From assembly GCA_016198755.1 (NCBI GenBank), contig JACQIB010000001.1, positions 1 through 32,000 of the forward strand: DNA of 32,000 nt, given 5' to 3'. This DNA comes from Candidatus Aenigmatarchaeota archaeon (GTDB lineage Archaea > Aenigmatarchaeota > Aenigmatarchaeia > Aenigmatarchaeales > JACQIB01). The translations under genes were made by a program, and so were the position numbers. The notes below the pieces were generated by a model. That model made no database searches, was not told the DNA's origin, and was given only the letters and a program-made list of their open reading frames with translations. This document shows, piece after piece, positions 155 through 32,000 of the stretch (the first letter of the stretch is position 1; every line of letters begins with the position of its first letter).

Positions 155-162
155 TTTAAATA
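155..162 (+). promoter_or_regulatory. TATA box TTTAAATA
   Basis: The octamer TTTAAATA ends 30 nt upstream of the ATG at 192, which implies a leaderless or near-leaderless mRNA. The same octamer recurs at 12424, 12441 and 27303. Confidence 0.45.
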
Positions 163-191
163 GCTTTGCAAACAAAGGGATTTGGTTGAAT

Positions 192-818
192 ATGAACTAT
201 AAAATTTTAGCTTTGGTTGTACTTGCTATATTGGTAGCAGGCTGTGTAATCCAGCCTCCAACAGGGGCTGTAACAAAGCCATTTGAGTATGATTTTGCAG
301 GCAAAACTTTCCATTTCCGCGGTAATCTTTTCGAGGCAGAGAAAATTCAGGTAGAGCCAAATGACAGGGCTTTAATAAATGCCCTCTTAGACCCGAATGC
401 ACAGTCTATATCATTTTATTTTATCCCAAACAGCACTGAAAACGGTTTTTATCAGGTTGCAGCTTATGAACTCTCTTACAAGCTAACAATAATAAACCAA
501 TATTATCTCGGAAAAACAATTCCAATACACACTTTCTATCTTGATAGCGCTGATGAGACAATACCAAATGGTCCAACCCAGCCTGCAATAGCTTTTGTAG
601 GCCCTTCAAATGCTGAAAAAACTTCTGTAAGAGTAAACAATAATCTTGTTGTTTTGGAGGGCGTGGATTTTTCAGAGAACGGAAGACAGTATACTGATCT
701 TGATTTGGCTGTTGCTAAAATGCTCCTTGTTCTAATGAAGGCAGAGCAAACACTTAGCCAGAATTCAACTGATACAACTAGCACTTCACAAACCCTTCCA
801 ACTCTCCCAGCGTCTTAA
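192..818 (+). CDS. Secreted lipobox protein, function unknown
   Basis: The ORF opens at TTG 186 and the first ATG is at 192. The N-terminus KILALVVLAILVAGC is a signal peptide with a lipobox-like AGC. The C-terminal tail is Ser/Thr/Pro-rich. I recognise no catalytic motif. Confidence 0.6.
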   Translation: MNYKILALVVLAILVAGCVIQPPTGAVTKPFEYDFAGKTFHFRGNLFEAEKIQVEPNDRALINALLDPNAQSISFYFIPNSTENGFYQVAAYELSYKLTIINQYYLGKTIPIHTFYLDSADETIPNGPTQPAIAFVGPSNAEKTSVRVNNNLVVLEGVDFSENGRQYTDLDLAVAKMLLVLMKAEQTLSQNSTDTTSTSQTLPTLPAS

Positions 819-1431
819 CTCCAGTTAAAATATCCTTTTCGTTCACAAGAATAGAGGGCGTTGATTTAATCCCATAAGTGTCTTTTATTTGGTTTACTGA
901 AACTATATCCAGATCTGTTGGCAACGGTATAAGCATTATTTTATTTCCGCACTTGTTCTTTAACTCTGATAAAACCGTGCTCTGCAGCCTCTGGTCCACA
1001 GCAGAGCTTTCATTATACTGAGAATAAAAATATACAACAGTGCTGTATGTTGCATTGCATGCCCTTTTCAGCTGCACAGAATTAAGCCAAAATTGCATTT
1101 GTAACAGTGCATACCTTCTTTTTTCCTCCAAAAGCTGCGGTGTAAATTTGTTTACAGATTCAAACCTCTCTATTTCCAAACCCTGTTTATAGACTTTATC
1201 AGAAAACTGCAAATTTCCCCCAATAAGGCTGTTGCATGAGTCATCTCCAGCCAAAGCAGTCTGGAAAAAAAGATTTTGCAAGCGTGCATCATTCCATTCT
1301 ATATCTATGCCAGTTATTTTTCCCCTTGTCTCCTCCAGCCTCTGGTCATCTATCCAAATCCCTACAAACAAGCCAGCCACAAAAACAGCTACAGATATTA
1401 TAGCAGTAAGGTAAAACACAGACTTGTCCAC
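778..1431 (-). CDS. N-terminally membrane-anchored protein with a possible thioredoxin-like C-terminal fold lacking CxxC
   Basis: 217-aa ORF with a GTG start immediately after the TAA of the upstream GT2 gene (1432-1434). There is one N-terminal TM helix (VFYLTAIISVAVFVAGLFVGIWI). The C-terminal pattern ...STPSILVNEKDILTG... resembles glutaredoxin/thioredoxin-fold proteins; this is weak. Confidence 0.5.
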   Translation of the reverse strand: MDKSVFYLTAIISVAVFVAGLFVGIWIDDQRLEETRGKITGIDIEWNDARLQNLFFQTALAGDDSCNSLIGGNLQFSDKVYKQGLEIERFESVNKFTPQLLEEKRRYALLQMQFWLNSVQLKRACNATYSTVVYFYSQYNESSAVDQRLQSTVLSELKNKCGNKIMLIPLPTDLDIVSVNQIKDTYGIKSTPSILVNEKDILTGVKTLGELEGFVKC

Positions 1432-2673
1432 TTACCACCAGCCTCCCTTCCCACGCACATACTTGATTGTTGAAAAAACAAGATTGAACGGGAACAGTGT
1501 TATGTATACAGTCAAATACAGAGCCAAGTCTATCAATCCTTTCCATCCTCCCAATCCCCTCTTAACAACCCCCAAACTTATCTTTATCCATATCAGTGAG
1601 AGGGCAAATGTAAGGAACCCGAAAATGCTGAAAATGTTAGGAAGGAAAAAGAAGCTTGTATCCCAGTATGGGCTAATGCCTTTTGAAACAGCAAACAAAT
1701 TAACTATTATATTATTGTAAACCCCGTTCAGGAAAACATAAGCATAAACACCAGCTCCTATAATAGAGAAAATATATGATAAAACAAAGAACGGGTAAAT
1801 GAAAGATCCAAGGCTCCCATACTTTGTGCTAAACCCAACAGATTTGTATTTTATTGAGGTTTGTATACCGCCCAAATTCCACCTGACTCTCTGTTTCCAC
1901 CACTTTCCAAAACTTGTTGGAGCACTGCTTTCAACCTCAGATCCAAGGCTCATTTTTATCTTATACCCAGCTTTCAAAATCCTCCAGGCTATTTCTATAT
2001 CCTCTGTGAAGTTTTTCTCATCAAACCCGCCAATTTCTTTCAGAACACTTGCTTTGTAAAGGCTTAGTGGTCCTGGAGTAACATAAACTCCATCCACAAG
2101 CTCCAAAAGCTTCCTTGCCCAGACAATCATCATATACTCTATAGCTTGCAGCCTTTCTATCAGTTTCTTTGGTTCCCTGACAAAGACAGATGAGGTTACT
2201 GCAGCAACTCCAGGATACCTGAAATACTGTACAGCCTTTATCAGTGCATCAGGCTTTGGATAAGAATCTGCATCCACACACCCCACAATCTCCCCTTTAG
2301 CTGCTCTAATGCCCTGATTAAGTGGTATAGCTTTCCTACCCCCGTTCACTGTCCTTTTAATCAGGTTTATTCCTGTAAATTTTCCAGCTATCTCCGCTGT
2401 TTTATCTTTCGAACCATCATCCACAACAATAATTTCCAACTTTCCCTTTGGATACTGCAAATTCTTAACAGCTTCTATTGTTCCCCCAATAGATTTTTCC
2501 TCATTGTAAGCAGGTATTATAAGGCTTACAGATGGAAGCAGGCTAAAATCCCCTATTTCATTCCTGAAACTTCCCCTTTGTTTTATATACAGTACAAAGA
2601 ACAGAAAGCCGAAAAATATGCTTAAAGCTGAGAAAACAAGGTATGTTATATCTATAACAGGGTTCAGTACCAT
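1432..2673 (-). CDS. Membrane-integrated processive family-2 glycosyltransferase (NodC/IcaA/cellulose-synthase-like)
   Basis: GT2 motifs are present: PAYNEE, VVDDGSKDKT, DADS and the processive-type Q-R-V-R-W (QRVRWNLG). An N-terminal TM helix and several C-terminal TM helices flank them. Confidence 0.85.
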   Translation of the reverse strand: MVLNPVIDITYLVFSALSIFFGFLFFVLYIKQRGSFRNEIGDFSLLPSVSLIIPAYNEEKSIGGTIEAVKNLQYPKGKLEIIVVDDGSKDKTAEIAGKFTGINLIKRTVNGGRKAIPLNQGIRAAKGEIVGCVDADSYPKPDALIKAVQYFRYPGVAAVTSSVFVREPKKLIERLQAIEYMMIVWARKLLELVDGVYVTPGPLSLYKASVLKEIGGFDEKNFTEDIEIAWRILKAGYKIKMSLGSEVESSAPTSFGKWWKQRVRWNLGGIQTSIKYKSVGFSTKYGSLGSFIYPFFVLSYIFSIIGAGVYAYVFLNGVYNNIIVNLFAVSKGISPYWDTSFFFLPNIFSIFGFLTFALSLIWIKISLGVVKRGLGGWKGLIDLALYLTVYITLFPFNLVFSTIKYVRGKGGWW

Positions 2674-2703
2674 TCCAATCTCCCCATAGTTTACCCCCTG
2701 CTT

Positions 2704-3852
2704 TTAAATACCTTTTGACTCTGCGGCTTTCATTATCTCTCTAAGAACAACAGTTGCATAGCTGCCTGCTGGCAGCTCAAACTTTATTTTTACCTTTGAT
2801 TTATCTTTGTTCATCTCATCCTCCCCAATAACCCATTCAATCCTGGGTTTTATCAAAATAGCCCTCTCAAACCCTGTGCAGCGCAGCTCTGAAATACCCC
2901 TCGGGGCAAAACTCTCTGCTTTCAGCCCAAGTCCTTTCAACTGCTTTGCTATCTCCTCTTCCAGAGGGTTTGTTGTATCCAAATCAGTTCCATATCCAGG
3001 TAGCGAAGCTTTTCCTTCAATTAAAACCCCTTTTTTCCAGCACTTTTCCAGAGATCTGTTCCAAATAATGCTCTGCACAGCATTTATAAGCATTTTCAAA
3101 ACTCTGAAAGGCAGTCTTCTCAAACAGCCAACAAAATCCTTCGGGTGCTGTGCCAAATAATCTAGCATACTCCTTTCGTAAACAAACTCAGGCGGAAACA
3201 TTCCAAGAGCTTCCCTGTAAGCTTCCTGCTTTCCCCAGTTTTTCCAGACCCAGTCCCTTGCTTTTTTTGCCTCTTCCATTTCCCCATCGAAAACCTTTGC
3301 AATATACATTTTTGCAGCCTGCTCAAACTTCCCTTTAAGTATTGCGAGCCCAGCTTCAGCAGTTACAGCGCGCACTGTACCGAAACGTTGCTCCCCGAAA
3401 ACATTAGGTATACCCATATCCAGTTCTCTTGCAACAACTCTCAGTCTGCTTTCAATCTCCTTTTCTCTCAGCCCTATTTCCCTTATTGTAATCTCAAACT
3501 TGTTTCCTTTCAGGTTTCCAAGCCTTATCCTTCCCCCCTCTTCAATCCCCCATATCCTTATTCCAGGAACTTCTATTTTTTCAACCTGTTCTTTAGAAAT
3601 CCCAAAAACAGAAATTCTTTGTTTTGTTACAGCTCTTTTATCTTTTGTTCCGGCAACTCCAATCCTGCTTGCAGAACAATGGAGAGCTTTTGCTATAGCT
3701 CTCAGGGCTAGGTTATTATCCCAGTTTCTCTTCTCTATCCAGAACTGAATATTCCCCTCCCCCTGAACTTCCTTAGGTATTTCTTCCACTACAAAATCCT
3801 CTACCAGTTCCCTTATCCTCCCCCCAACCCCCTCCCCCATCGTAAAGAACAT
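2704..3852 (-). CDS. truD: tRNA pseudouridine synthase D (TruD/Pus7 family)
   Basis: GTKDKRAVTKQ catalytic-Asp motif, NVFGEQRFG motif, and 382 aa, which is typical of archaeal TruD. Confidence 0.85.
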   Translation of the reverse strand: MFFTMGEGVGGRIRELVEDFVVEEIPKEVQGEGNIQFWIEKRNWDNNLALRAIAKALHCSASRIGVAGTKDKRAVTKQRISVFGISKEQVEKIEVPGIRIWGIEEGGRIRLGNLKGNKFEITIREIGLREKEIESRLRVVARELDMGIPNVFGEQRFGTVRAVTAEAGLAILKGKFEQAAKMYIAKVFDGEMEEAKKARDWVWKNWGKQEAYREALGMFPPEFVYERSMLDYLAQHPKDFVGCLRRLPFRVLKMLINAVQSIIWNRSLEKCWKKGVLIEGKASLPGYGTDLDTTNPLEEEIAKQLKGLGLKAESFAPRGISELRCTGFERAILIKPRIEWVIGEDEMNKDKSKVKIKFELPAGSYATVVLREIMKAAESKGI

Positions 3853-3883
3853 GGGAAGGTTTGATTAGCAGAAGATATAAGTA

Positions 3884-6800
3884 TTAGTTTAGAACAGTGT
3901 TTCTTACTTTTTGAGAATCATTTACAAGATCGTTCCTTGCTTTGTCTACAAATTCCTTTATTTCATCTAGTTTTTTCTTGAAGTTATCATAATCTACTCT
4001 ATTTTTCCCACCCTTTAACAAGTTTGAAAACCCGCCCACCAACCCATCAGTTCTGCCTCTTAAAAACTCTTCCATATTTTCCAAGTTCCCCCCATATTTA
4101 CTCCACATATCAAGTATTTGCTGCTGCGCATCCAAACTGTCCCCAAGCTCGCTTTCCCTCTGCTTCAAATAACGTTTTACCTCCTCCGGTGCATCAGGTG
4201 CAGCAGCAAGTTTTCTTAGCTCATTTACAGTTCTCAGTGCCTCCCCTGCATCATTAGCTTTCACAATAAGCCTGTCAAAATCTTCCATTAGCGTTGGATG
4301 TTCTTCCATAAATTTCTGTACTCTAGTTCCATCAGAAAATACACTTATTCCCCATCCAAAGGTTTCAAAAGCTGCATACCACCCCATAGAAACTCCAAAT
4401 GCCTTTAAACCAGCCGGATTAATTTTCCCTCCAGGAAGCTTTATTTTTCCATACTTTTCTATCCGGTTTTTATATATTCTATGTACAGCAACATCCTTTC
4501 CTATATCCAATGATGTCTCTCTGGCAAAATCTCCGGCAGCTTCACCCAAATTTTTCCTACCACTGTTATAGTCTTCAAGAGCTTTATTATAGCTACCAAG
4601 TATGTCAACTCCAGGCAAGACGGCTTTGTTCAGAACCAGTTTTGCAATGGTTCCAATACTCAAATGTTCAGTCATTTTTTCTACTGTCCAATCAGCACCT
4701 TTCTTAACAATCTTCTTCCCAAGTTCGTTATCTACATTTTTATTGGTGCCCTCTTTGTATGGCATCTTTTGCCCAAAGAAGTCATTCGTCAAACCTTGCT
4801 CAACATCTCTACGATTTATCTTTAATACATCAGATATAATATGGTTTATCCAATTAGAGAGCAACCTGGTGGTATCCAACAAAATGTTGCCCGTTACAAA
4901 TGCTTTCTCGGGCCTCGGATCCACGTAATCCCTTTCCAGTGTTAGTGTCCCATCAGAAAACTCCCTTAGCTCAAGATTAACATCACCATAATTTCCTCTA
5001 TATATTTTTACTGTTCCATGATCAGGTAGCCCCCACATAGTAGGCTGGAAGTCAACGACCTTGAAAATATCCCTTCCTACAACAATTGGCTTGCTGTATG
5101 GCAGAGTTGGAATAAGGTTTGCCAATTTTTCTGTGTTTGCACTAGCAAGGCTTTGCATTGCAGTCTGGTCTGCAACATTGTAGAAGCTCTCTTCTCCAGC
5201 ATCGTTTTTTTGCAGTCTGTAAACATTTCCATTATAAACAATATTCTTCGATTCCCCCCGTTTCATTCCTCTAAATTCTTTGGAAAGAATATCTCCGAGA
5301 CCTCCGCTGAAAGTAGTAATTCCAGACTTAACAGTTGAGCCTATAACAGCATTTTTCATTTCCGTTTCTCTAATCATTTGCAGCTCTTTTTTAATCCTTT
5401 CTTCATTTTCCTGTGCAAATTTATTTGCATAGTTATCCCCGTACTTTTGTTTTATATTGAAGTAATATCCGCCAGGCAGCCACTCAGAAATATACCTTAC
5501 AGAGCTTACATTTCCAAACCCAGCTAGATACCTGCCTGCAACATTCCTCCTTATAGCATTGTTATCCGCACTTGGTGTTATTGAATCTTTTTCAGTTGGA
5601 AATATCTGCACAACTCTTTGTTTAAGTTCAGATAGCTTTGTTTCGAATCCTCTTATTGTCTGTTTTGTAAAAGCAACAGCCGTTCCAATTACGAGAAGGC
5701 CAATTAACGAAACAGCAAGCGCAGTTTCTGTATTATTATCATCATTTTCTCCCCGTCCACCATTTCCGGTTTCAATAGAGAATGGATATGATATATTTGA
5801 TGTATTATCTTCCGAAGATTTAATTAAAACAATAGGAACTTTTATTGTAGCGCGTAATGCATAATCCTTTCCAATAACTTCATTTCTAACTGAAACATCT
5901 CCACCAGCGCTTCCTGAAATAAATGTTTCTGATTGTTTTTCAGTATATCTCAATTCACCAATCTGATTAGAATCATGTACATCCATACAAACCCAGAACC
6001 TATTACCAACAGCAACAGGATATTTTAGTTTGAAAATTCTTTCATCCCCATTTGCTATTGTTGCATTTACAAAACTATCATAATAAAGCAGTGTTCCCAT
6101 CCTATATGCATTATCTGCATACACAAACAGGTTTGTCTGTCGCATAGTTTCCGGAGTAAAGCCAAGAGTACTAACTTCTGTTAATTCTGCTTTTTTTTCA
6201 TTTGTTTCGAATGCTTTACAAAGTTCAATATATCTGTTATCAGGTATAACTCTATTAAGTTTAGAACTGCTGTCAGAATTTTCTGTCTGAAGCTTGATAT
6301 TTTCATAAACAATGTCTTTATTCGGAATAACTTTAATTTCCGAACTATAGACTGCAACTCTTGCATCTATTGCAAAGCTGCCTTGCACATCATTATCAGT
6401 TTTTGTTTGTCCGCCTTCAGGATAGTAATACACACTACTAGAACCACCATTTCTATAGTATGCAAAATATGTTTCTTCTTTGGAGTCTGGTGCACTTAAG
6501 CAGACCCAGAAGTTTCCAGCCACAGGAACTGGAGTTTTAAAGTTAACAATTTCCCCATGTAGATCACCAGTTATAGAATAATTTGAATAGTCTGTACCAA
6601 TAACATTTCCAGGAACTCCACCATTATCAAGCCTAACTGTCCCTTTCAATATTTTGCTGTTAATATCTCCTCCATTAAAACCAGCAGCCCTTATCTGTGT
6701 AACAGCGGCATTTTTATCATTAATACCAACAATATTGCACAGTTCTACTCCGTTTTTAAGTGTACTGCTTGTTTTTTCATCAATATATCCCCAGAATTCC

Positions 6801-8575
6801 CTCAGATTCTTTTCCTTTATAATAGTCCCAGTGAAATTCAGGCTTTCATGAGGTACAGGAATACCCCCAAACCTTGCAAAAATAGCAGTATTGACAGGAT
6901 TTATATATTCATATAATAGTCTTGTTACAGGATTGAAAAAATAATCTGGAAGCCCATTTGAAACTCCTATATTTGTGTCGCGCGTGTAGTATGGTGTGTT
7001 CGTACATATCCAAATTCTATTGTCAGCTAAAATAGGTTCAGGTAAAATAAATGACTCATTATGGTATGATCCTATTTCAATGTCCTTGAAAAGTCTTGAT
7101 AAAAGAATTCCGGGCTTGTTTTTGTTATCATCATAAATCTTTATCTGCACGGTTCTTTTTGCACTTCTCCCGTCAAAACCAGAAACAATAACTTCTTTTA
7201 GTTCAGCTCCATTAAACGGCGGATTCAAAGGTTTGCATAATTCTTTTGGAGCTGTTGTAACATAACCGCCCGAAGCAGAATAACTGCTACTATTAGGCAA
7301 AATCACTTCAGTGTATCCAACAGGCTTATAATCAGCAACAGCAGCAGGATTTGTAATAACATCTGTCCTTATTGCATACTTTCTGGTATAGTGTGCACGG
7401 GTTAAACTCTCGTCTCTATGATTATAATAGTAAGCAAATTCTCCACTTTCGCTAAATGCGAGAAATCCCTGATTTGCATTCTCCACACCGTTGCCCAAGC
7501 AAGCCCAGAACTTCTCAGGCAAATCTACTCTATTCAGTATTATTGTTTCTTCATGAACACCATTTGTTGAAATATATTTTGTCCCTTTTGCAAGCAGAGT
7601 TCCAATTTTCCCAGAGTTATCAGAATAAACTGCGGCACTTATTTTAGATGTTCCTTGATTAAAACCAACACCAGTTACGCCATAAAGCTTGGAATTTGGA
7701 GCTGCGTTTGTAAAAAGTTTGCATACTTCCATGTCAGTAGTACTGGGAATTATGTTATCTGTCAGCATATTAGGAACAATTTCAACATTATCTGTTTTGA
7801 GTGATGTTCTATAACCATCCTTATTATTGTCAGCTGTAATAAAATCATATTCACAAAAATTATCAACCGGATTAAATGTTGGTTTTATACAGTTGTACCC
7901 GCCTCCGCAATCGCTGTCAACACCGCAGTTCAGAACCATGTAAGGTTTTGTTTTTCCGGTGTTTGTATCATTGTATTTTGGAGTAAAACTAGCCCAGCCA
8001 TGTGCAAACCATTGATGTCCACCTACATTTTGTAATGACATATCAAAATAACCAAAAATCGGGGGAGTTCTTATTTCAGCTTGAGGATTACTGTACGTTT
8101 TTTCCACAAAACTATTCTCTGTCTCAGATCTGCAAAACCCTTGTGAAAGCATTCTTGTATTTGTTGTGTTATCAACACAACCATAAGAAAATCCATTATT
8201 CCAGTTCTCATCAAATGCTATTATATCAAAACTAGAAACATGGAAAGATTGGCCAAGTATATTTGTAGCACCATTTACAGTTGCAGTAAACCATGTAGTA
8301 AAGTTTTCGCCAGTAAGCAGGTAAGCTTCTACAGTACCATCACCATCCACATCTGCGTAATGCCAGTCATTTGCACAACTAATTCCCAGCCCAGAAGAGA
8401 AAGGATCATAATCAGTTGGAGCCTGTTTTGTTCCCTCAGAAGGAGTCCAATACATGGAATTATGCGATTCCCCATTGTTATAGAAATCAATGCATATTGG
8501 CTTTACTGCTGCAGCTGGTAGAGCTAGAAAAAGGGAAGTCAATATTAAACCCAGCAAAATATGGCGTGCGTACAT
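3884..8575 (-). CDS. 1563-aa type-I membrane surface protein: signal peptide, about 925-aa ectodomain with four tandem repeats, one TM helix, about 590-aa cytoplasmic domain
   Basis: Uninterrupted 4.7-kb ORF. The N-terminal signal is HILLGLILTSLFLALPAAA. The TM segment ALAVSLIGLLVIGTAVAF (aa 952-969, nt 5669-5722) is followed by TKQTIRGFETK. I recognise no known catalytic motif. Confidence 0.8.
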   Translation of the reverse strand: MYARHILLGLILTSLFLALPAAAVKPICIDFYNNGESHNSMYWTPSEGTKQAPTDYDPFSSGLGISCANDWHYADVDGDGTVEAYLLTGENFTTWFTATVNGATNILGQSFHVSSFDIIAFDENWNNGFSYGCVDNTTNTRMLSQGFCRSETENSFVEKTYSNPQAEIRTPPIFGYFDMSLQNVGGHQWFAHGWASFTPKYNDTNTGKTKPYMVLNCGVDSDCGGGYNCIKPTFNPVDNFCEYDFITADNNKDGYRTSLKTDNVEIVPNMLTDNIIPSTTDMEVCKLFTNAAPNSKLYGVTGVGFNQGTSKISAAVYSDNSGKIGTLLAKGTKYISTNGVHEETIILNRVDLPEKFWACLGNGVENANQGFLAFSESGEFAYYYNHRDESLTRAHYTRKYAIRTDVITNPAAVADYKPVGYTEVILPNSSSYSASGGYVTTAPKELCKPLNPPFNGAELKEVIVSGFDGRSAKRTVQIKIYDDNKNKPGILLSRLFKDIEIGSYHNESFILPEPILADNRIWICTNTPYYTRDTNIGVSNGLPDYFFNPVTRLLYEYINPVNTAIFARFGGIPVPHESLNFTGTIIKEKNLREFWGYIDEKTSSTLKNGVELCNIVGINDKNAAVTQIRAAGFNGGDINSKILKGTVRLDNGGVPGNVIGTDYSNYSITGDLHGEIVNFKTPVPVAGNFWVCLSAPDSKEETYFAYYRNGGSSSVYYYPEGGQTKTDNDVQGSFAIDARVAVYSSEIKVIPNKDIVYENIKLQTENSDSSSKLNRVIPDNRYIELCKAFETNEKKAELTEVSTLGFTPETMRQTNLFVYADNAYRMGTLLYYDSFVNATIANGDERIFKLKYPVAVGNRFWVCMDVHDSNQIGELRYTEKQSETFISGSAGGDVSVRNEVIGKDYALRATIKVPIVLIKSSEDNTSNISYPFSIETGNGGRGENDDNNTETALAVSLIGLLVIGTAVAFTKQTIRGFETKLSELKQRVVQIFPTEKDSITPSADNNAIRRNVAGRYLAGFGNVSSVRYISEWLPGGYYFNIKQKYGDNYANKFAQENEERIKKELQMIRETEMKNAVIGSTVKSGITTFSGGLGDILSKEFRGMKRGESKNIVYNGNVYRLQKNDAGEESFYNVADQTAMQSLASANTEKLANLIPTLPYSKPIVVGRDIFKVVDFQPTMWGLPDHGTVKIYRGNYGDVNLELREFSDGTLTLERDYVDPRPEKAFVTGNILLDTTRLLSNWINHIISDVLKINRRDVEQGLTNDFFGQKMPYKEGTNKNVDNELGKKIVKKGADWTVEKMTEHLSIGTIAKLVLNKAVLPGVDILGSYNKALEDYNSGRKNLGEAAGDFARETSLDIGKDVAVHRIYKNRIEKYGKIKLPGGKINPAGLKAFGVSMGWYAAFETFGWGISVFSDGTRVQKFMEEHPTLMEDFDRLIVKANDAGEALRTVNELRKLAAAPDAPEEVKRYLKQRESELGDSLDAQQQILDMWSKYGGNLENMEEFLRGRTDGLVGGFSNLLKGGKNRVDYDNFKKKLDEIKEFVDKARNDLVNDSQKVRNTVLN
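5831..7729 (-). repeat. Four tandem, divergent protein-domain repeats of about 130-165 aa inside the giant ORF
   Basis: Each unit starts E-[LV]-C-[KN] and has [FI]-W-[AIV]-C 74-79 residues later (Cys pairs 285/359, 447/524, 613/692, 786/863). Tyr-rich and [YF]A[IL]R/FAR/FAID motifs then recur. Units are approximately nt 7346-7729, 6851-7243, 6341-6745 and 5831-6226. Confidence 0.75.
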
Positions 8576-14739: not shown

Positions 14740-16455
14740 ATGGCAGAACTGGCAACAGAGTTTATACCAAAAACAACATTGGAAATGAAAGAGGGAGAAA
14801 CCCTATACTATAAGTCAGCTTCTCTCTGTCCGGAGTGCTTAAAATTAATACCAATGAATGTTTTTGAGAAAGATGGAAAAGTTTTGCTCAGGAAAGCCTG
14901 CAAGGAACATGGAACAATAGAAGATGTTTATTGGGGGAATTCAGAGCTGTTCAAGAAGGCTAAAACATTCGAAGTTAAAGGGAGGGGATTGGAAAATCCA
15001 TTCATAACAAAGGACAATCCTATATGTCCTCAGGATTGTGGTCTTTGTTCAATACACGAGACTCACTCAGGCTTAACAAATTTGGTTATAACAAACCGCT
15101 GTGACTTAACCTGCTGGTACTGTTTCTTTTATGCTGAGAAAGCTGGCTATATTTATGAACCAACTTTAGATCAAATACGCGGAATGGTCGCACAGATAAA
15201 GGATGAAAAGCCAATTGCAGGAAATGCAATCCAGATTACAGGAGGAAACCCTGAACTAAGAGATGATTTGCCTGAAATAATAAAAATAATAAAGGAAGTC
15301 GGAATAGATCATGTTCAATTGAATACAAATGGCACAAACAAACTTTTCAAAGACCTGAACTTTGCAAAATCCATACGCGCCGCAGGAGTAAACACGGTTT
15401 ACCTGAGCTATGATGGTGTAACTCCGCAAACAAACCCAAAGAACCATTGGGAAGCACCTGCAATTTTAGATAACTGCAGGAAATCAAACCTTGGGGTTGT
15501 TCTTGTCCCAACTGTCATAAGGACAATAAACGACCATGAGATAGGAGATATACTGAAATTCGGATTTGATAATAATGATATTATAAAAGGAGTTAATTAC
15601 CAGCCAGTTTCTTTGGTTGGAAGAATGCCCACAAAAGAAAGGGAACGATTCAGAATAACAATACCAGATGTAATTGAAAAGCTTGAGGAAGCTACTAACG
15701 GTCAGGTTGGAAGGGAAGCTTTCTATCCAGTTCCATGTACAGTTATACTTTCAAACTTTGTAGAGGCTTTAACAGGCGGACCCAAATATGAGCTTTCAAT
15801 TAATCCAGCCTGCGGAATGGCAACCTATATTTTCAAGGATGGGGAAAAGCTTATACCAATAACAGACTTTGTGGATGTGGACGGTTTGTATGGATATCTA
15901 CGAGAGCAAACAGAAGCTCTGCAGAGCGGCGCAAACAAGTATGTTGTTATTGCGAAAATGATGACTAAACTCCCTTCATTCATAGACAATGATCGCCAGC
16001 CAAAGTGGCTTAACCTAGGAAAAGTCCTGTTCAATATTTTAGTAAAACATAACTATGAGGCTCTGGGTGCTTTCCACAAGAATGCTTTGTTCGTTGGAAT
16101 GATGCACTTCCAGGACCTATATAATTGGGATATACAGAGGATAAAGAAGTGCGACATCCATTACGCTACACCTGAAGGAGTTATCCCATTTTGTACATTC
16201 AATGTTATACCAGAATGGTACAGGGACAAGATACAGAAGAAACATTCTATCTCTTTACAGGAGTGGGAACAGAGGACAGGTCAGAGTTTGAAGGGAGGAT
16301 ACTACAAGAGGAACATTAAAGCTCTTATGGCAGATCCGCTCTATGCTAAAACTTATCCAAAAATTGCAGCCAAGCTTGCTGCACGCGCTGCTGCTCTTCC
16401 AGTTGCCCAGCCAGCCCAGTCTTCTTGCGCCACAGGCCCAGGCTGCGGTTGCTGA
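14740..16455 (+). CDS. Radical-SAM enzyme of the MJ0619/Tes (tetraether lipid synthase) architecture
   Basis: N-terminal rubredoxin-like CPEC...CKEHG, then CPQDCGLC, the radical-SAM triad NRCDLTCWYCF, GGNPELR, and a C-terminal KCDIHYATPEGVIPFCTFN. Radical-SAM assignment about 0.9; Tes-specific assignment about 0.5, from recalled family features. Confidence 0.7.
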   Translation: MAELATEFIPKTTLEMKEGETLYYKSASLCPECLKLIPMNVFEKDGKVLLRKACKEHGTIEDVYWGNSELFKKAKTFEVKGRGLENPFITKDNPICPQDCGLCSIHETHSGLTNLVITNRCDLTCWYCFFYAEKAGYIYEPTLDQIRGMVAQIKDEKPIAGNAIQITGGNPELRDDLPEIIKIIKEVGIDHVQLNTNGTNKLFKDLNFAKSIRAAGVNTVYLSYDGVTPQTNPKNHWEAPAILDNCRKSNLGVVLVPTVIRTINDHEIGDILKFGFDNNDIIKGVNYQPVSLVGRMPTKERERFRITIPDVIEKLEEATNGQVGREAFYPVPCTVILSNFVEALTGGPKYELSINPACGMATYIFKDGEKLIPITDFVDVDGLYGYLREQTEALQSGANKYVVIAKMMTKLPSFIDNDRQPKWLNLGKVLFNILVKHNYEALGAFHKNALFVGMMHFQDLYNWDIQRIKKCDIHYATPEGVIPFCTFNVIPEWYRDKIQKKHSISLQEWEQRTGQSLKGGYYKRNIKALMADPLYAKTYPKIAAKLAARAAALPVAQPAQSSCATGPGCGC

Positions 16456-25571: not shown

Positions 25572-26789
25572 ATGCCAAAGAAGACTCTTCTTGTAGTTTT
25601 GAGTGGAATAGGGGACGGGTTGGTGGAAGGCAGGGAAACATCTCTTCAGAGAGCTGCAAAGCCAACTTTAGATATTATAGCAAAGAACGGCTACTCTGGT
25701 TTGGTTGAAAACAACCTTCCCAACCCAAGCACAGAGCTTTCCCTATTCTCTCTTTTAGGTTATAATTCAGAATATCCTGGAGACGGGTTGGTAGAAGCTC
25801 TTTCAGTCCACCCAAACCTTATAGAAGGCGATGTTCTTGTACGCGCAAACTTCTGCACCGTGCGCGAACAGATAGGTGAAGTAGCGCAGGGAGAGTTTGA
25901 ACCCAGATTGGTTGTAGAAGAGCCCTGGGCAGGCAGGGAGAAAGAAGGGTTGATTGAGCTTTCAAAATCAATAGAAAACATGCTTATAGACGGAGTAAAG
26001 GTAGAGTTTCATAAAACTCTTGGATACCGTGGGTTTGTTTTAATCAGGAACATAGACGTTAAGCCAAACATAACAGATACATATTCAGAAACAGTTGGTT
26101 CACCAGTAAAAATTGTAAAACCTACAGCTCAGGATTCGGGTTCTGTTAGAACAGCAGCAACCCTGAATAAATGGCTTTTGGAAGTCTGGAAACTGTTAAA
26201 AGACCATCCAGCAAACAGGAACAGGCGCTACCCTGCAAACTTTTTACTTTTAAAAGGCGCATCCACACCAATTCCATTTCCTCCATTTTACCAGAAAACA
26301 GGATTAAAGGGAAATATGGTTTCAGGTTTGCCAAGTCCCAAAGGATTAGCCAAGCTTTTGGGAATGAACGTGACAGAAGTGCATGGTGCAAATGCTAGCA
26401 CAGATACAAACCTGAGGGATAAAACTTTGGCTGCGCTAGATGGCCTACGATTACATAATTTTTCTATCCTACACATTTCCGGCTTTGATCGCTGCAGCCA
26501 TGAAAGGAACCCAAACCTGAAAAGAGCCTTTATAGAGAAAGTTGACAACGAGGTTTTCAGGAGAATAATGGAGTACATAAACCTGAAAACCACAAACTTG
26601 GTTGTTGTTTCAGACCACTGCACTCCTGTTCAGACTGGAGTACACGAAGCAGGCAAATTCCCATTTGCTATTGCAGGTGCAGGAATAAAGCCAAACTCTG
26701 TTTCCAGCTTTAATGAGAACAGCTGCAAAGCAGGTCCGTTGGTTTCCATAGAAAACTTCATGGAAGAAATCCTGAAATTCTCAGGCTAA
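25572..26789 (+). CDS. apgM: Archaeal-type cofactor-independent phosphoglycerate mutase-like protein (ApgM / alkaline-phosphatase superfamily)
   Basis: Overall ApgM pattern: GDG..EA...., RANFCTV, ISGFDRCSHE, VVSDHCTP..TGVHE. The N-terminal motif reads LSGIGDG where, as I recall, ApgM usually has DG.GD. It may therefore be a divergent paralogue. Confidence 0.6.
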   Translation: MPKKTLLVVLSGIGDGLVEGRETSLQRAAKPTLDIIAKNGYSGLVENNLPNPSTELSLFSLLGYNSEYPGDGLVEALSVHPNLIEGDVLVRANFCTVREQIGEVAQGEFEPRLVVEEPWAGREKEGLIELSKSIENMLIDGVKVEFHKTLGYRGFVLIRNIDVKPNITDTYSETVGSPVKIVKPTAQDSGSVRTAATLNKWLLEVWKLLKDHPANRNRRYPANFLLLKGASTPIPFPPFYQKTGLKGNMVSGLPSPKGLAKLLGMNVTEVHGANASTDTNLRDKTLAALDGLRLHNFSILHISGFDRCSHERNPNLKRAFIEKVDNEVFRRIMEYINLKTTNLVVVSDHCTPVQTGVHEAGKFPFAIAGAGIKPNSVSSFNENSCKAGPLVSIENFMEEILKFSG

Positions 26790-27244
26790 GACTTTTTATC
26801 CAACCACCCTGAAATATAGCCCCTATATTTTTGTTTAATTTTTGCAGGCAAGAAACTATATCCCTTTATAATCTTCCTGCACCCTTTAGAGCCGCACCTG
26901 CATTTCATAGACCACTCGCTGTCTTCAGACATGGCATAATCAAAAGTCAATTCTTCTCCCTTCCTTATATTCACCATAGCAACAATTTTTATGGTTCCTC
27001 TAATCCCGCAATTTGGGTTACATGAGTGGTTGATAAATTTCGAATCATCGCTGATTACCAGCCATTTATTGTTGCCGATCTGTACGCTGTGGTTTTCATC
27101 ATATTTTGATATAAACCTAAAGTCCTCCAAAGAGCGGGCTTTGCCTTCAAAAACTAAAACCACACCATCTTTTTTTATATCATTCTTTGCAAACAGGCCT
27201 TTTCCAAACCTGGATTTTCCCACACAAACATCTTTGTTTATCAT
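26786..27244 (-). CDS. SET-domain protein-lysine methyltransferase with a post-SET Cys cluster
   Basis: GKGLFA, NHSCNPNC, EELTFDY and post-SET CRCGSKGC motifs; 152 aa. Confidence 0.85.
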   Translation of the reverse strand: MINKDVCVGKSRFGKGLFAKNDIKKDGVVLVFEGKARSLEDFRFISKYDENHSVQIGNNKWLVISDDSKFINHSCNPNCGIRGTIKIVAMVNIRKGEELTFDYAMSEDSEWSMKCRCGSKGCRKIIKGYSFLPAKIKQKYRGYISGWLDKKS

Positions 27245-27310: not shown

Positions 27311-29077
27311 CCTTCGGCTCACAGTAAAATACCTGTAGAAATGGTGGCTTTGTATGTTGAACCAATAAAGTGGCATTGGAAAACTTAACTTAGGCTTAAA
27401 AAAGCCTCTTTTTCTCGTGGTTCCCCTCAGGAGCTTTGTGCTATAACTGTGGTCCACGGTGTTTTTCCTTGTTGCAGAAATGCAGCATGCTATCATAGTC
27501 CTTAACAGGACTGGCACATACCGTACGTGCCAACAGCCCTCAATGAATTCAAGTAACGCGGCTGAGCCGAAAGGCAATGACATGCCCATGGGGTATATAA
27601 GAGGGTGCAAAAAAACCGGGCAGTGAAGAAACAAAACTGTCTCTTTGAGCAAAAAGCGATGAAAAAAACAAATGACGTTTCGAGCCCGTAAGCAGATGCT
27701 CATTCGAACCTGGGAGTTCGGGTGTAAGGGCAAATAGGAAGCGATGAAAGGTTTAGAACACCTATTGAGCTTTCAAGATCTTTATGATCGATGATGCCAA
27801 CAGAGGAAAGAGGAAAGGGTCTGGAACATCACAATAAAGGATACTGTATGGTGGATGACTCGGCATGGGTTACCGATGAAGAGCGTAGCAAGCTGCGATA
27901 AGCCTGGGTGAGACGCAAGCAGTCTTAGAACCCGGGATTCTCCAATGCGACCTCGCGCCAGTTTAGGCTGGCATTCGCATACAGAAATGTTTGCGAAAGG
28001 GAACCCGCTGAATTAAAGCATTTTAATAAGCGGAGGAAGAAAAATCAAACGAGATGCCGCTATTAGCAGCGAGCGAAAACGGCAGAGACCAACCCGAATC
28101 TTTTTGTGTAAGCAGGAAGAGATGTGGGGCCAGGTACAATCTTTCTTTCGACCTGAAGTTCCGTGGAACACGGGTGCCATAGAAGGTGAAAGTCCTGTAA
28201 GGGAAAAAAGAAAGATTGATTCTGGAGGAAGAGTACCATTCCCCGATTCGGGAGTGGGAATATGGGGGTCATCAATCTCCAAGTCTAAACATAAACCATG
28301 GCCGATAGCGAAAGAAGTACGGTGACGGAATGTTGAAAAGAATTCTTCACCGAAGATGAAAAGAACCTGAAACCATACAGTGATAGTCGCCCATGGCGCG
28401 AAAGGTGCCCTTGTGAAGGAAAACTGCGTGAGCAGTGTGTACGAACAGGGGCTTACAGCGTTATGGGGTTCGTTTCGAAACACGTGGTAGGGAGTTTGCT
28501 TTCCTGGCGAGCTTAAGCTGTAAAACGGCGAAAGCGTAGCGAAAGCGATTGCACGCAGCCCGCAAGGGTCAGGTGCAAGGTTCGAAAGAGCCTGTAGTCA
28601 GGGGGGCAAGACCCGAAACCTTTCGATCTTACCCTGGGCAGGATGAAGTGCGGCGAAAGCTGCATGGAGGTCCGATACCGATGCTAGCGCTAACTTCTCC
28701 AGCAGGAGAAGCTTCCAAGAAAAATCTGATTGGAGGAGGTGCAACCTGCTCGGGTGACCTGGGGTAAGGGGTGAAAAGCCAATCGAGAAAGGTAATAGCT
28801 GGTTCCTCTCGAAATGTCCCTCAGGACAGCCTCGCTGGAGGCAGCTTGTGGGGTAAAGCACTGATTGGGGTGTTAAGGTGGGAAACCGCCGGCACGCCTG
28901 TCAGACTCATAACCTGCAAGCACCGTAGAAGGCGGGAGTGAGGGTACCTGGGTAAGCTAGGTATCCGAAGCGGGAACAACCGCGCCTGAGGTTAAGGTCC
29001 CTAAATGATAACTAAGTCACAAAAGTGGTGTCAGTCCAAAGACAGACGGGGCGTAGGCTTAGAAGCAGCCAATTTGA

Positions 29078-29934
29078 GTAGTAATCTATACTTTAGAATA
29101 CGAAAATCAATAAAAGGAAGATTGATTAATAGAATAAAGTGCACAAACTACCGCCAAAAAATCCGAAAATCGCGTTGAAGACTGTTAACCTGCAAGGGTT
29201 AACAGCTTTTAGAAAAACTAAGCCTACGATACCCAATTACATAAATCCGCAACTAGCATATCTGGCGGGAGCACTAAGAGATGGTACAATTTCAAAAACT
29301 ACAGGGCCGTATGGCACAAAATACTATCTAGCAATATGCAATAAAGACAAGATATGGCTTGATAGTGTAATACGGCCTACCATAGAAACAATATTCAACA
29401 TAAAACTTGGGAAAATACTGAAAGACAGACAAAAACACCAAATCAGAATAAGAAAATATGGGATAGTGCAATTCTTGGCAGATTTGTTCCAACATCCATA
29501 TGGTAAACAAACCTTATGGAAAACCCCAAAGATCATAGAGGATTCGCATAAAGAAATAAAAAAATGGTTCTTGCGAGGATTCTATGATTCTGAAGGAGGT
29601 TGTGGGAACATAACAAAATTGTATAATAAATATCCGTGGCACAGTCCATTTCCTATCAGATTCCATTCTGGATGGATAAATGAAAAAGAATGTCCTCCAC
29701 TGGATTCTATTAGGTATATATTGACTGAAGATTTTGGTATAAAATGTTCGCCTGTTATCTTTTCTAAGAGATATAAAACAGGCAGATACAAAACTCAAGT
29801 AAAAATGTTTTATATAAAAATTACAGATAAAGAACAAAAATTGAAATTCATTAAAACCATAGGTAGCTCAAATCCAACCAAATTTAAAGAACTATTATTT
29901 TTGAAAGGATTGCTGCTCAAAGCTGAACCGCATA
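29078..29934 (+). mobile_element. 23S intron I1 (about 857 nt) carrying a LAGLIDADG homing-endonuclease ORF, inserted at E. coli position about 1085/1086 (GTPase-associated centre, between the A1067 and A1095 loops)
   Basis: The exon sequence GCAGCCAATTTGA (29065-29077) stops aligning at 29077. Alignment resumes near ATCAACGCGTAACAGCGGACC (29935-). The insert is AT-rich. TTTGAG (29073-29078) can pair with CTCAAA (29917-29922). Boundaries are +/-5 nt. Confidence 0.8.
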
Positions 29935-30068
29935 ATCAACGCGTAACAGCGGACCGTTCGAGGACTGATGCGCTGAAAATGGACGGGAGTAAGTTATCTA
30001 CCGAGACCTCAGATACCAAAAGGTATAGCGTAGAGAGGCGCTCTGTTCGGGTAGAAGTTGGGGCGTAA
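29139..30068 (+). CDS. Double-motif LAGLIDADG homing endonuclease (intron-encoded)
   Basis: Motif 1 is LAYLAGALRDG (aa 39-49) and motif 2 is FLRGFYDSEGG (aa 144-154), spaced about 105 aa apart. The start is GTG. The endonuclease core ends near aa 265. The last 45 or so codons (29935-30068) are read-through into rRNA exon sequence and are probably not part of the real protein. Confidence 0.85.
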   Translation: MHKLPPKNPKIALKTVNLQGLTAFRKTKPTIPNYINPQLAYLAGALRDGTISKTTGPYGTKYYLAICNKDKIWLDSVIRPTIETIFNIKLGKILKDRQKHQIRIRKYGIVQFLADLFQHPYGKQTLWKTPKIIEDSHKEIKKWFLRGFYDSEGGCGNITKLYNKYPWHSPFPIRFHSGWINEKECPPLDSIRYILTEDFGIKCSPVIFSKRYKTGRYKTQVKMFYIKITDKEQKLKFIKTIGSSNPTKFKELLFLKGLLLKAEPHNQRVTADRSRTDALKMDGSKLSTETSDTKRYSVERRSVRVEVGA

Positions 30069-30734
30069 GTTCCAATGGACCGTTCAGAGATGAGAATCCT
30101 ACCGATAGTAGCAGCAAAGAAGAGTTGGAATCTCTTCCGCCCGAAAGGCAAGGTTTTCCCGGCAACGATACTCGGCCGGGAGTAAGCCGATCCTAAGTCG
30201 CCCCCTAACGGACGGCGACGAAAGGGAATACGGTTAATATTCCGTAGCTGCAGCCATAGACGGGGTAACCCAAGCCCAGGCAAAATGTTTTTGGATATGT
30301 TCATGTAAGCGAAGCGTTTAAACCCTTGGAGTTCCGTCAAGGAGAGAAAAGGGTGAATGCGTTACAGGCTTCGGCGCAAGCTGGAGTTGAGCAAATTCCA
30401 AGAATCCATGAAAATTTGCCAGGGAGCGATTGGCTGCATTCGTACTCAGAACCGACGCAGGTGACCTTGTCTGAGAAGGACGTGGCGTGACGAGATACAC
30501 CAGGCTAGGGAACTCGGCAACACTGGCCGCGTACGTTCGCTATAAGCGGTGCCCATCTAGAGATAGGTGGGTCTCAGTGACCAGGGCCAAGCGACTGTTT
30601 AACAAAAACGTAGCCGGTTGCTATGCGGAAACGCTGTGTATAACCGGTGAGGCCTGCCCAGTGGCGGTGTGTCAAACTCGGTTTCAACCGAGCTAAGCCC
30701 CGCTAAACGGCGGCGGTAACTCTGACCGTCTTAA

Positions 30735-30775
30735 TCCAATCATGTAGAGAAATCTGTATGGTTGCATTGGGTACA
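30735..30775 (+). other. 23S insertion I2 (41 nt) directly 3' of helix 69 (E. coli about 1928/1929); putative mini-intron
   Basis: ACCGTCTTAA | TCCAATCATGTAGAGAAATCTGTATGGTTGCATTGGGTACA | GGTAGCG. The insert folds as CCAAT/ATTGG plus CATGTAGA-GAAA-TCTGTATG (GNRA loop). Confidence 0.6.
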
Positions 30776-30910
30776 GGTAGCGTAATCCCTTGCCGATTAA
30801 ATGTCGGCCTGCATCAATGGCTTAACGACTTGGCCGCTGTCCCGGTCTGGAACTCGGCGAACTTGCTATTGTGGTGAAAAGGCCACAGACCCTCAGAGGG
30901 AATCGGAAGA

Positions 30911-31171
30911 AGTGCTCTCGAAAATTTTAAAAAATAAAAATAGGTGATAAAAATGAGAGAAATCAAAAATTTAATAGAGACAAAGTCTTGCGATCCTATA
31001 ACAGCATTAAATGTTGCAACACAAATAGTGTCAGCAGGAGCAGCAGTTGCATCTGTATACTATGCATCTAAAAAGAAATAAAATAAATACCTACCAACAT
31101 AAGCGAGAAGGTATTATGATCATGAATAGTTAGAATAGAATTTGAGCATTTCTCCGACCTCATAGAGAAGA
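30911..31171 (+). other. 23S insertion I3 (261 nt, AT-rich) within GGAAGA|CCCC (E. coli about 2058-2063); putative intron with a micro-ORF
   Basis: Removing it gives ATCGGAAGACCCCGTGGAGC, which matches the archaeal-type G2058 sequence. GAAGA is repeated at both junctions, so there are six equivalent placements. AGTGCTC (30911-17) pairs with GAGCATT (31144-50), and TCGGA (30903-07) pairs with TCCGA (31153-57). Confidence 0.65.
30953..31081 (+). CDS. Intron-encoded 42-aa hydrophobic micro-ORF (MREIKNLIETKSCDPITALNVATQIVSAGAAVASVYYASKKK)
   Basis: ATG is preceded by AGGTGAT (30942-30948), a 7-nt match to the anti-SD of archaeal 16S. The C-terminal half is a roughly 23-residue hydrophobic segment ending in KKK. 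I recognise no homing-endonuclease motif. Coding status is unproven. Confidence 0.35.
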   Translation: MREIKNLIETKSCDPITALNVATQIVSAGAAVASVYYASKKK

Positions 31172-31591
31172 CCCCGTGGAGCTCTGCGGCAGCCTGTCGT
31201 TGCTGTGCGGTCGCGGTTTCATAGAGTAGTTGGGAGAGGTTATATCAGCGTTTTCGGGCGCTGGTTACTCGGCAATGTAACACCAACATCTCGTGACTGT
31301 ACTGCTAACCTCGACTCGGGGGACACCGATTGGTGGGCCGCTCGGCTGGGGCGGTACGCTCATGACAGGAGATCATGAGCGCGCAAAGTTATCCTCATCC
31401 CGGTCAGAAATCGGGAGTAGAGTGTAAACGCAAAAGGATGACTGACTGTGTTCCGCAAAGCAAGGAACGCAGACGCGAAAGCGTGCGTTAGCGATACACC
31501 GAGTGGTCTTTGATGGATTTCGGTGACTTCAGAAAAGCTACCCCGGGGATATGGGTTGGCGCAGAGAAGCGGGTTTTCTTGGAACAATTTA

Positions 31592-31649
31592 ATAAGGCAA
31601 AGCTATCTTGCCAATAGAAATATTGGTTTGCAAAGCAAGCTTTATGCTA
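31592..31649 (+). repeat. Copy 1 of a roughly 57-nt direct repeat inside intron I4
   Basis: ATAAGGCAAAGCTATCTTGCCAATAGAAATATTGGTTTGCAAAGCAAGCTTTATGCTA. It contains the hairpins GGCAA..TTGCC and CCAATA-GAAA-TATTGG. Confidence 0.85.
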
Positions 31650-31725
31650 CACATACGTGTAGTGATTTTTCTAGAAAATCCGTGATAACCATCATTCTTC
31701 CACACATGCTATGATCGTACCTTGT

Positions 31726-31782
31726 ATAAGGCAAGCTTACTTGCCAATAGAAATATTGGTTTGAAAAGCAAGCTTTATGCTA
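31726..31782 (+). repeat. Copy 2 of the roughly 57-nt direct repeat inside intron I4
   Basis: ATAAGGCAAGCTTACTTGCCAATAGAAATATTGGTTTGAAAAGCAAGCTTTATGCTA. It is identical to copy 1 over the central CTTGCCAATAGAAATATTGGTTTG and terminal AAAGCAAGCTTTATGCTA. The differences fall in the first hairpin loop. Confidence 0.85.
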
Positions 31783-31876
31783 ATCAGAGTTTGAGAGCAA
31801 TTACTTTTTGTGGAAGAACATCTCTGCGCCAAGCCACTTCATAACAGAGTCGTGGCGGGCGAGAGCTCCTATCGAC

Positions 31877-31938
31877 ATTTCGTCGAGTATAGGGTTTCAA
31901 TTTTAGAGTTAGCTATGCCAATATTCGCGGAACGAAAA
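31877..31938 (+). other. 23S insertion I5 (62 nt) in helix 89 (E. coli about 2483/2484); putative mini-intron or hairpin insertion
   Basis: CCTATCGAC | ATTTCGTCGAGTAT...ATATTCGCGGAACGAAAA | CCCGCGCG. Removing it lets GCGGG pair with CCCGC as in H89. The insert's ends pair: TTTCGT/ACGAAA and CGAGTAT/ATATTCG, with a CGGA bulge. Confidence 0.6.
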
Positions 31939-32000
31939 CCCGCGCGTTGCTACCTCGCTGTCGGCTCCCCCCCTCCTGGCTGTGCAGTAGCAGCCAAGGG

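Follow-up and report, generated by a model that had tools for sequence, protein, structure and literature searches.

An insertion beside the peptidyl-transferase centre of a DPANN 23S rRNA gene

We analyzed a 32,000-nt stretch of DNA (hereafter, the window) from a Candidatus Aenigmatarchaeota archaeon (contig JACQIB010000001.1, positions 1–32,000), focusing on an insertion near its end that interrupts the 23S (large subunit, LSU) rRNA gene and encloses a 42-codon open reading frame (ORF). At least five insertions interrupt this 23S gene, which belongs to a DPANN (Aenigmarchaeota) archaeon, over a span of 4.2 kb; they lie at 29072–29927, 30735–30774, 30902–31163, 31552–31843 and 31877–31938. 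Because several insertions are present, the gene is much longer than the Rfam model. The third insertion, studied here, is AT-rich, with a GC content of 0.32 against about 0.5–0.6 in the flanking exons. Read directly against E. coli rrlB (NC_000913.3), its junction is 2054|2055 with a one-base A/A ambiguity, 3–4 nt 5′ of A2058; the intron thus lies in the 5′ strand of helix 73, adjoining the peptidyl-transferase centre. A first-pass annotation of the window had recognized an rRNA intron here but assigned it to positions 2058–2062, a site that the rrlB comparison does not bear out. Its limits (about 30911–31171) were also approximately 9 nt off: the last base of exon 1 is 30901, the first base of exon 2 is 31164, and the final 8 nt of the earlier interval (AGAGAAGA) belong to exon 2. 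The Rfam alignment placed a 270-nt insertion within the preceding hairpin loop; we rejected this placement because it breaks that hairpin and has a low posterior probability. A blastn search with the spliced exon against E. coli genomes gave no match.

Intron-less relatives confirm these limits. Scanning with the exon-2 sequence, one genome per species, yielded 11 DPANN loci, all from Aenigmatarchaeota, Nanoarchaeota or unclassified metagenome-assembled genomes. Nine of the 11 are insertion-free at the site; two of these, L002 and L007, match GACCCTCAGAGGGAAGAGAAGACCCCGTGG in full, and seven depart from it at no more than a few exon positions. BLAST breakpoints fell at 30902 and 31164 in eight loci. 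The closest relative, L018/L019 (L018, ENA ERZ4903072 k141_3570600, 1–6556), was reached through a 90%-identical homologue of the endonuclease gene in the first intron of the window. Its exons are 98–100% identical to those of the window, and it reads ...GGCCACAGACCCTCAGAGGGAAGAGAAGACCCCGTGGA..., with an intron-free site whose sequence GACCCTCAGAGGGAAGAGAAGACCCCGTGG is the same as in L002 and L007. Two further loci found by iPGM synteny (L016 and L017) stop short of the insertion site, and the more distant L021–L023 are too short for comparison. Removal of the intron yields GGGA|AGAGAAGACCCC, the reading of eleven relatives without the intron, or in longer form GACCCTCAGAGGGA|AGAGAAGACCCCGTGG; the predicted spliced junction is ...CAGAGGGA|AGAGAAGACCCC, and the predicted junction of a circular intron is ...CCGACCTCAT|ATCGGAAGAAG.

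Table 1 Coordinates of the 23S rRNA gene, the intron and its parts (window positions).
Feature	Coordinates	Strand	Description	Basis
Archaeal 23S (LSU) rRNA gene	27827..32000	+	Continues beyond the window end	Rfam RF02540, 1853 bits; BLAST breakpoints against relatives
Intron	30902..31163	+	262 nt, GC 0.32, between E. coli 23S 2054 and 2055	Folds; junctions in relatives
Exon-1 side of the bulge-helix-bulge motif	30892..30901	+		Folds; pair counts; junction match to intron-less relatives
Exon-1 parts of the motif	30892-94; 30895; 30896-99; 30900, 30901	+	CTC; unpaired A; GAGG; bulge bases G and A	Folds
5′ arm of core stem	30903..30929	+	TCGGA, bulged A, GAAGTGCTC, bulge TCGA, AAAATTTT; pairs with 31136-31157
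TATA-like box	30925..30934	+	TTTTAAAAAA; -28..-19 from ATG; spacing as in window genes	Inference only
Shine-Dalgarno-like motif	30942..30948	+	AGGTGAT	Strongest such match ahead of any window ORF examined
42-codon ORF and stop	30953..31081	+	MREIKNLIETKSCDPITALNVATQIVSAGAAVASVYYASKKK	Codon score; gene call; predicted helices
3′ arm of core stem	31136..31157	+	TAGAATTT GAGCATTTC TCCGA	Folds; pair counts
3′ side of the bulge-helix-bulge motif	31158..31167	+		Folds; pair counts; junction in relatives
3′ parts of the motif	31158-61; 31162, 31163 | 31164; 31165-67	+	CCTC; bulge A, T | A; outer helix GAG	Folds

The insertion folds as a bulge-helix-bulge intron

The two junctions come together in a motif of the bulge-helix-bulge (BHB) type, which appears in the minimum-energy fold of 30870–31200 and was reproduced in a truncated construct. 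An outer helix (CTC/GAG) and a 4-bp central helix (GAGG/CCTC) are accompanied by 3-nt bulges on opposite strands (GAA, 30900–30902; ATA, 31162–31164), and the intron ends form a long inner stem (Table 1). The extra unpaired A30895, opposite the 3′ bulge, leaves the motif slightly relaxed. BHB motifs are canonically cut between the second and third bases of each bulge, a geometry taken from the tRNA 37/38 case, and cutting here at those positions restores the conserved, uninterrupted rRNA. The terminal pairings proposed in the first-pass annotation, AGTGCTC/GAGCATT and TCGGA/TCCGA, both form in the minimum-energy fold. When the junction regions of four intron versions at this site (described below) were aligned, each of the 17 pairs that make up the BHB and core stem formed in every version. 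Three pairs showed compensatory double changes within this sample of only four sequences: one in the central helix (AU/UA/GU) and two in the inner stem (CG/UA and GC/AU). As a control, the 3′ strand was shifted by 1–3 columns, which left 41–54% paired. These results indicate that the insertion is almost certainly a BHB intron of the EndA-spliced type.

The contrary view would be that the element is not spliced at all, but is a transposon resembling a miniature inverted-repeat transposable element (MITE) with a target-site duplication, an expansion segment that stays in the rRNA, a group I intron, or sequence inserted into a dead rRNA gene. The ends are indeed inverted repeats, and the exon edge looks duplicated. 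However, the duplication vanishes at the true junction. The likeness between GACCCTCAGAG at the 5′ exon edge and GACCTCATAGAG near the 3′ end, to which the earlier annotation had drawn attention, is present in the sequence, half of it being exon; it is explained by the CCTC of the central-helix 3′ strand running into the bulge AT|A and the AGAG with which exon 2 starts. Moreover, further copies, which a MITE would be expected to have, are absent from the window and from 23 related loci, and neither a group I nor any other Rfam model matches; for group I introns this holds at the gathering threshold across the window and at E ≤ 10 for the intron alone. The 23S gene is not decaying, because its exons are 98–100% identical to those of a relative and fit the LSU model, and lethality would be the expected outcome if a 262-nt insert were left unspliced in a strand of helix 73, so near the peptidyl-transferase centre. 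We therefore consider an unspliced insertion very improbable.

If the established archaeal pathway operates on this BHB intron, EndA would make both cuts, at the two bulges, and RtcB would join the exons and circularize the 262-nt intron; the genes for both enzymes lie outside the window. Excised archaeal rRNA introns are reported to circularize and can be stable (PMC3326292).

One intron family in four sizes at the same site

DPANN archaea carry introns of 874, 262, 40 and 37 nt at 2054|2055, all with the same termini. The 874-nt intron of L003 and L014 holds a 259-aa ORF with two LAGLIDADG-like motifs recognizable by eye and a sub-threshold Pfam match to LAGLIDADG_3 (E = 0.0018). Mini-introns of 37 nt occur in L008 and L013, and one of 40 nt in L015 (JGI Ga0213870_1013420). 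Common to all versions is the core 5'-AT(C/T)GGA..AAGT and ATTT(C/T)TCC(G/A)ACC(T/A)CAT-3'. The mini-introns are essentially this core stem plus a small closing loop, whereas the 874-nt and window introns carry extra sequence in the loop; the window intron thus consists of the conserved core stem and a lineage-specific loop of 225 nt. The site is polymorphic, with an endonuclease-bearing homologue in L003/L014 and no intron in L018/L019 despite near-identical exons.

Intron turnover between the window and L018 is far faster than exon divergence. The two share intron 1 (93% nucleotide identity) and the second, mini-intron. L018 has three LAGLIDADG-like introns that are absent from the window, at window-equivalent positions 28978, 30520 and 31409. 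It further has, 15 nt 3′ of the 2054|2055 site, an insertion of 83 nt after E. coli ~2071, which the window also lacks. In L015, only ~17 nt separate the 40-nt mini-intron from a second insertion downstream of it, a larger one beginning after CCCCGTGGA. Introns without an endonuclease gene have been reported to be co-converted by the endonuclease of a neighbour, as in the I-PogI case (cited in PMC4496867), and the spacing in L015 is of the kind reported there.

The intron encloses an ORF with host-like codon usage and candidate expression signals

The loop of the window intron contains the ORF, whose 42-aa translation is exactly that given in the first-pass annotation. Dinucleotide shuffling produced an ATG-initiated ORF of at least 42 codons in 5% of sequences when the sense strand was considered and in 17% when both strands were; by itself, therefore, the length is weak evidence. 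We then scored codon usage as log-odds, in-frame versus off-frame, trained on 16 protein genes of the window. The intron ORF scored 0.347 per codon in frame, and –0.94 and –0.34 in the other two frames. For comparison, 42-codon windows of host genes scored 0.235 ± 0.086; host genes of a relative, outside the training set, scored 0.199 ± 0.091, with 5.6% reaching 0.347; and stop-free random sequence of the same composition scored 0.03 ± 0.09, with 0.02% reaching that value (P about 2e-4). By this measure the ORF ranks first among the 290 ORFs of 25–80 codons in the window, and first among the 62 in the rRNA gene. GC contents at codon positions 1, 2 and 3 are.405,.429 and.19. A gene caller run on the independent Logan contig L001 (1,098 nt), the only record to which an exact look-up of the peptide led and which is 100% identical to the window, called the intron ORF as its sole gene.

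Two candidate signals precede the start codon (Table 1). The AGGTGAT that the earlier annotation had placed 4 nt before the ATG is there, at –11, and resembles a Shine–Dalgarno (SD) sequence. A match of at least 7 nt to the complement of the anti-SD sequence within –17 to –4 has P = 0.001 in sequence of like composition, and only eight such 7-mers exist in the whole window on both strands; the complement used is the general archaeal consensus, the 16S 3′ end of the organism itself lying outside the window. A TATA-like box lies further upstream. Most window genes have no SD but a TATA-like box 22–32 nt before the ATG (for example, those at 14740, 20235, 22581 and 24530), which suggests that mRNAs in the source genome are mainly leaderless. 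The same TATA-like layout precedes endonuclease genes in introns of related DPANN archaea (L016, L018, L020 and L023), and these intron genes may thus have promoters of their own inside the rRNA gene.

Could chance have produced the ORF together with its SD-like motif and TATA-like run, in an AT-rich spacer of the BHB intron that serves only to form the loop of the stem? Beyond the shuffling frequencies given above, several observations fit this idea: a GCA/CAG-rich stretch of the ORF is repeat-like and open in all frames, conservation is lacking, and the same 23S gene holds a 292-nt intron without an ORF. The joint pattern is nonetheless improbable by chance, since the top codon score among 290 ORFs coincides with the only correctly placed SD 7-mer, the scores in the other two frames are strongly negative, like those of real genes, and GC drops at codon position three. 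In combination, codon usage, SD, TATA-like spacing and the gene call make a purely random origin unlikely, and we accordingly rate coincidence as improbable. The ORF sequence looks as if it had evolved under coding constraint. The earlier proposal of a genuine SD-led gene thus gains statistical support: codon usage resembles that of host genes, the SD 7-mer is a rare one, and the TATA-like box stands at the spacing seen in the presumed leaderless genes of this genome.

The predicted peptide is a small, helical orphan

AlphaFold2, run on the single sequence, predicted helices at residues 3–9 and 15–40 with fair confidence (mean pLDDT 79.8). In the long helix, T17, N20, T23, Q24, S27 and S34 fall on one face. 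The best 19-residue Kyte–Doolittle mean is 1.36, the Eisenberg <H> is 0.50, and the hydrophobic moment is 0.16–0.29. Membrane association, perhaps as an oligomer, is possible on the basis of this composition. A tryptic or semi-tryptic peptide such as SCDPITALNVATQIVSAGAAVASVYYASK is an example of what the ORF product would release.

As the first-pass annotation held, the intron contains no homing endonuclease: the ORF has no Pfam or NCBIfam match and no similarity to two endonuclease genes. It has, in particular, no Pfam match to PF05635, the 23S intervening-sequence protein, at E ≤ 1. No type I toxin family was matched in Pfam, NCBIfam, PADLOC, the PDB or two large protein searches. A 45-aa form starting at GTG was absent from the records by exact look-up, scans of viral contigs with the 3′ junction and a back-translated peptide pattern gave no match, and tblastn of the peptide against all fetched loci gave none at E ≤ 5. 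Besides the peptide itself, HMMER gave two matches, both rejected as low-complexity noise: a repetitive 758-aa protein matching residues 2–17 six times, and, at a borderline level (E = 9e-4), a 1166-aa protein with no reportable aligned stretch. A C/D-box RNA or other RNA as the cargo of the intron was also rejected: there is no CUGA D box, and Rfam at E ≤ 10 returned only a chance match to a CRISPR repeat (E = 7).

Gene, relic or coincidence

Several observations weigh against the view that the ORF is a gene. The peptide lacks a homologue among about 15 billion proteins. A word-indexed search of 5.8 billion clusters recovered only the peptide itself, a full HMMER scan of 1.84 billion representatives gave no homologue judged real, and Pfam, NCBIfam, PADLOC and the PDB held no peptide match. 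Purifying selection is not measurable, because the only other copy (L001) is 100% identical, and no second, diverged copy exists on which to measure coding conservation. By blastn, the 225-nt interior has only chance-level matches to the rest of the window and to the 23 related loci. The other introns at the site (L008/L013, L015 and L003/L014) do without this interior, and the closest relative (L018/L019) has no intron there. The first-pass annotation had named homologous introns lacking the ORF as an outcome that would count against a gene; this outcome is formally what we find, but it is uninformative about selection, the whole loop being missing and not just the frame. The ORF length is reached in shuffled sequence at the frequencies given above, and the codon signal comes partly from seven GCA codons in a triplet-repeat-like stretch, although the score without codons 28–33 is still about 0.25. 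Most genes of the genome do not use an SD, and TATA-like strings are expected in sequence of 25–30% GC. Finally, the hydrophobicity is marginal for a transmembrane helix, with N and Q inside the segment.

A different history would make the ORF a dead relic: what is left of a gene once held by the intron, be it an endonuclease gene or the captured 5′ end of some other gene. Homing endonuclease genes classically pass through a cycle of gain, decay and loss, and a relic would fit into such a cycle: the old promoter, SD and start would have been kept while deletion shortened the same BHB intron toward the 37–40-nt mini-intron state. At 2054|2055 a full size series exists, from 874 nt with a LAGLIDADG-like ORF through 262 nt to 37–40 nt. 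Intron content differs sharply between near-identical rRNA genes, the endonuclease genes of related introns have TATA-like boxes at an equal distance, and the peptide is an orphan. 'Remnant' introns, moreover, are a recognized class in Thermoproteales (PMC4496867). Against a relic, the ORF is intact, including start, stop and SD, and shows neither DNA nor protein similarity to the endonuclease gene of L003, to the gene of window intron 1 or to 11 other intron ORFs. Its codon score is well above that of windows from intron endonuclease genes (0.133 ± 0.084; 1.2% reach 0.347). We consider a relic unlikely. A decayed endonuclease gene as the source of the interior was also sought directly and rejected, tblastn and blastp with the L003 and intron-1 genes, together with blastn, having given chance-level matches only; an N-terminal likeness noticed by eye between MKEIITIETL and MREIKNLIETK of one L018 endonuclease gene was not recovered by tblastn at E ≤ 5.

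On balance, we lean towards the ORF being, or having recently been, a real coding sequence, and with a similarly slight preference we regard it as being, or having very recently been, a genuine small gene within the BHB intron. That it is a currently expressed, functional micro-protein seems to us doubtful, if conceivable.

Possible expression and function of the intron ORF

If the ORF is a gene, it could be expressed by either of two routes: it might be transcribed from a promoter inside the intron as a near-leaderless mRNA, or it might be translated from the excised intron through the SD. Either route would yield a peptide that has a single long helix, moderately hydrophobic and rich in small residues, followed by a KKK tail. 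We put forward only tentatively that an expressed, small helical and probably membrane-associated peptide, instead of an endonuclease, is the cargo of this BHB rRNA intron. Were this so, the peptide could be, for example, a toxin-like addiction factor that penalizes loss of the intron, or a micro-protein useful to the host.

Small membrane peptides with a single helix are known among type I toxins and similar peptides, such as Ldr, Fst, TisB and Hok. The window peptide resembles them in its length (<60 aa), polar N-terminus, long helix of small and hydrophobic residues, aromatic residues and basic tail; it differs in matching none of their families, in that the sequence revealed no antisense RNA partner, and in a hydrophobicity that, by our own estimate, is below the typical, so that the resemblance is one of layout only. 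Proteins other than endonucleases are also known from insertions in LSU genes: rps3 lies in the mL2449 group I intron of fungal mitochondria, and Leptospira and Coxiella have the '23S rRNA intervening sequence protein' (Pfam PF05635), encoded in intervening sequences excised by RNase III. Our ORF shares with these its position inside an LSU gene insertion and its not being an endonuclease gene; those proteins are conserved and about 120 aa or more, whereas the window peptide, inside a BHB intron, is an orphan of 42 aa.

The usual view is that an archaeal rRNA intron holds either a homing endonuclease gene or nothing. To our knowledge, within a limited search of the literature, no example has been described of an intact, codon-adapted micro-ORF other than an endonuclease gene as the cargo of an archaeal rRNA intron, and 2054|2055 is not known to us as a listed BHB site. 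Archaeal BHB rRNA introns have been grouped into endonuclease-encoding introns, ORF-less remnants and hairpins of <50 nt (Jay & Inskeep 2015, PMC4496867). The window intron resembles the BHB rRNA introns of Thermoproteales and Desulfurococcales in its junction BHB, its long end stem and its position in a conserved rRNA region, in the endonuclease, intermediate and mini versions found at one site, and in a presence that varies among close relatives. It departs from them in its DPANN host and in that the intermediate version carries an intact, codon-adapted, SD-preceded 42-codon ORF. The LSU genes of DPANN archaea (Woese-, Pace- and Micrarchaeota) have been reported to contain multiple BHB and group I introns, many with LAGLIDADG genes (PMC6125680), and group I introns are catalogued at 1923, 1931, 2500 and 2593 (Nawrocki, Jones & Eddy 2018, PMC6125680). 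Unlike those group I introns, the window intron has neither an Rfam group I match nor an endonuclease gene.

If the gene is real, this would be, as far as we know, the first archaeal BHB rRNA intron with a small helical peptide as cargo. It would mean that archaeal rRNA introns can hold other genes, as a review comment by W. F. Doolittle (PMC4496867) appears to ask, and that in DPANN archaea rRNA introns that have been excised, and may be circular, or promoters inside introns can act as platforms for expression. The locus is of use even if it holds no gene: it documents a BHB insertion site 3–4 nt from the macrolide-binding nucleotides, the entire range of sizes that one intron family takes at a single site, and rapid intron turnover between rRNA genes whose exons are 98–100% identical. 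There is also a practical lesson: alignment to a covariance model put the insertion in the wrong place, and rRNA genes with multiple introns break primers and rRNA-based binning.

Other insertions of the 23S gene and its neighbourhood

The first insertion of the 23S gene (29072–29927) is associated with a 309-aa LAGLIDADG-like ORF (29139–30068), whose Pfam match is sub-threshold (E = 0.006). The second (30735–30774), located at E. coli ~1928/1929, is a mini-intron of 40 nt. The fourth and fifth, whose sites are E. coli 2450|2451 and 2483|2484, flank a 33-nt micro-exon (31844–31876) that corresponds to E. coli 2451–2483 and whose first base is the catalytic A2451; Rfam fused these two insertions into a single one of 375 nt. 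The 292-nt insertion at 2450|2451 has no endonuclease gene and no ORF that scores as coding-like, and it contains a direct repeat of ~57 nt (31592–31649 and 31726–31782, 93% identity) that reads …ATAAGGCAA(A)GCT…TTGCCAATAGAAATATTGGTTTG…AAGCAAGCTTTATGCTA. A match to the C/D-box small RNA family sR39 on the minus strand (31340–31402), which at 19.7 bits is below the gathering score of 50 (E = 0.015), is antisense to 23S exon sequence and is probably a chance hit.

Upstream of the 23S gene there is no 16S gene; a SET-domain gene (26786–27244, minus strand) and an iPGM gene adjoin it instead. Given the lack of a 16S gene ahead of the 23S, the rRNA genes of the source archaeon appear to be unlinked. 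The iPGM–23S neighbourhood is kept in L016, L017 and probably L010. A 1563-aa ORF on the minus strand of the window (3884–8575) had no Pfam match at E ≤ 0.001. In L016 (1–2152), a radical-SAM HMPTM homologue of >1033 aa contains an intein with a LAGLIDADG_3 domain; its window orthologue (14740–16455), at 571 aa, is free of such domains.

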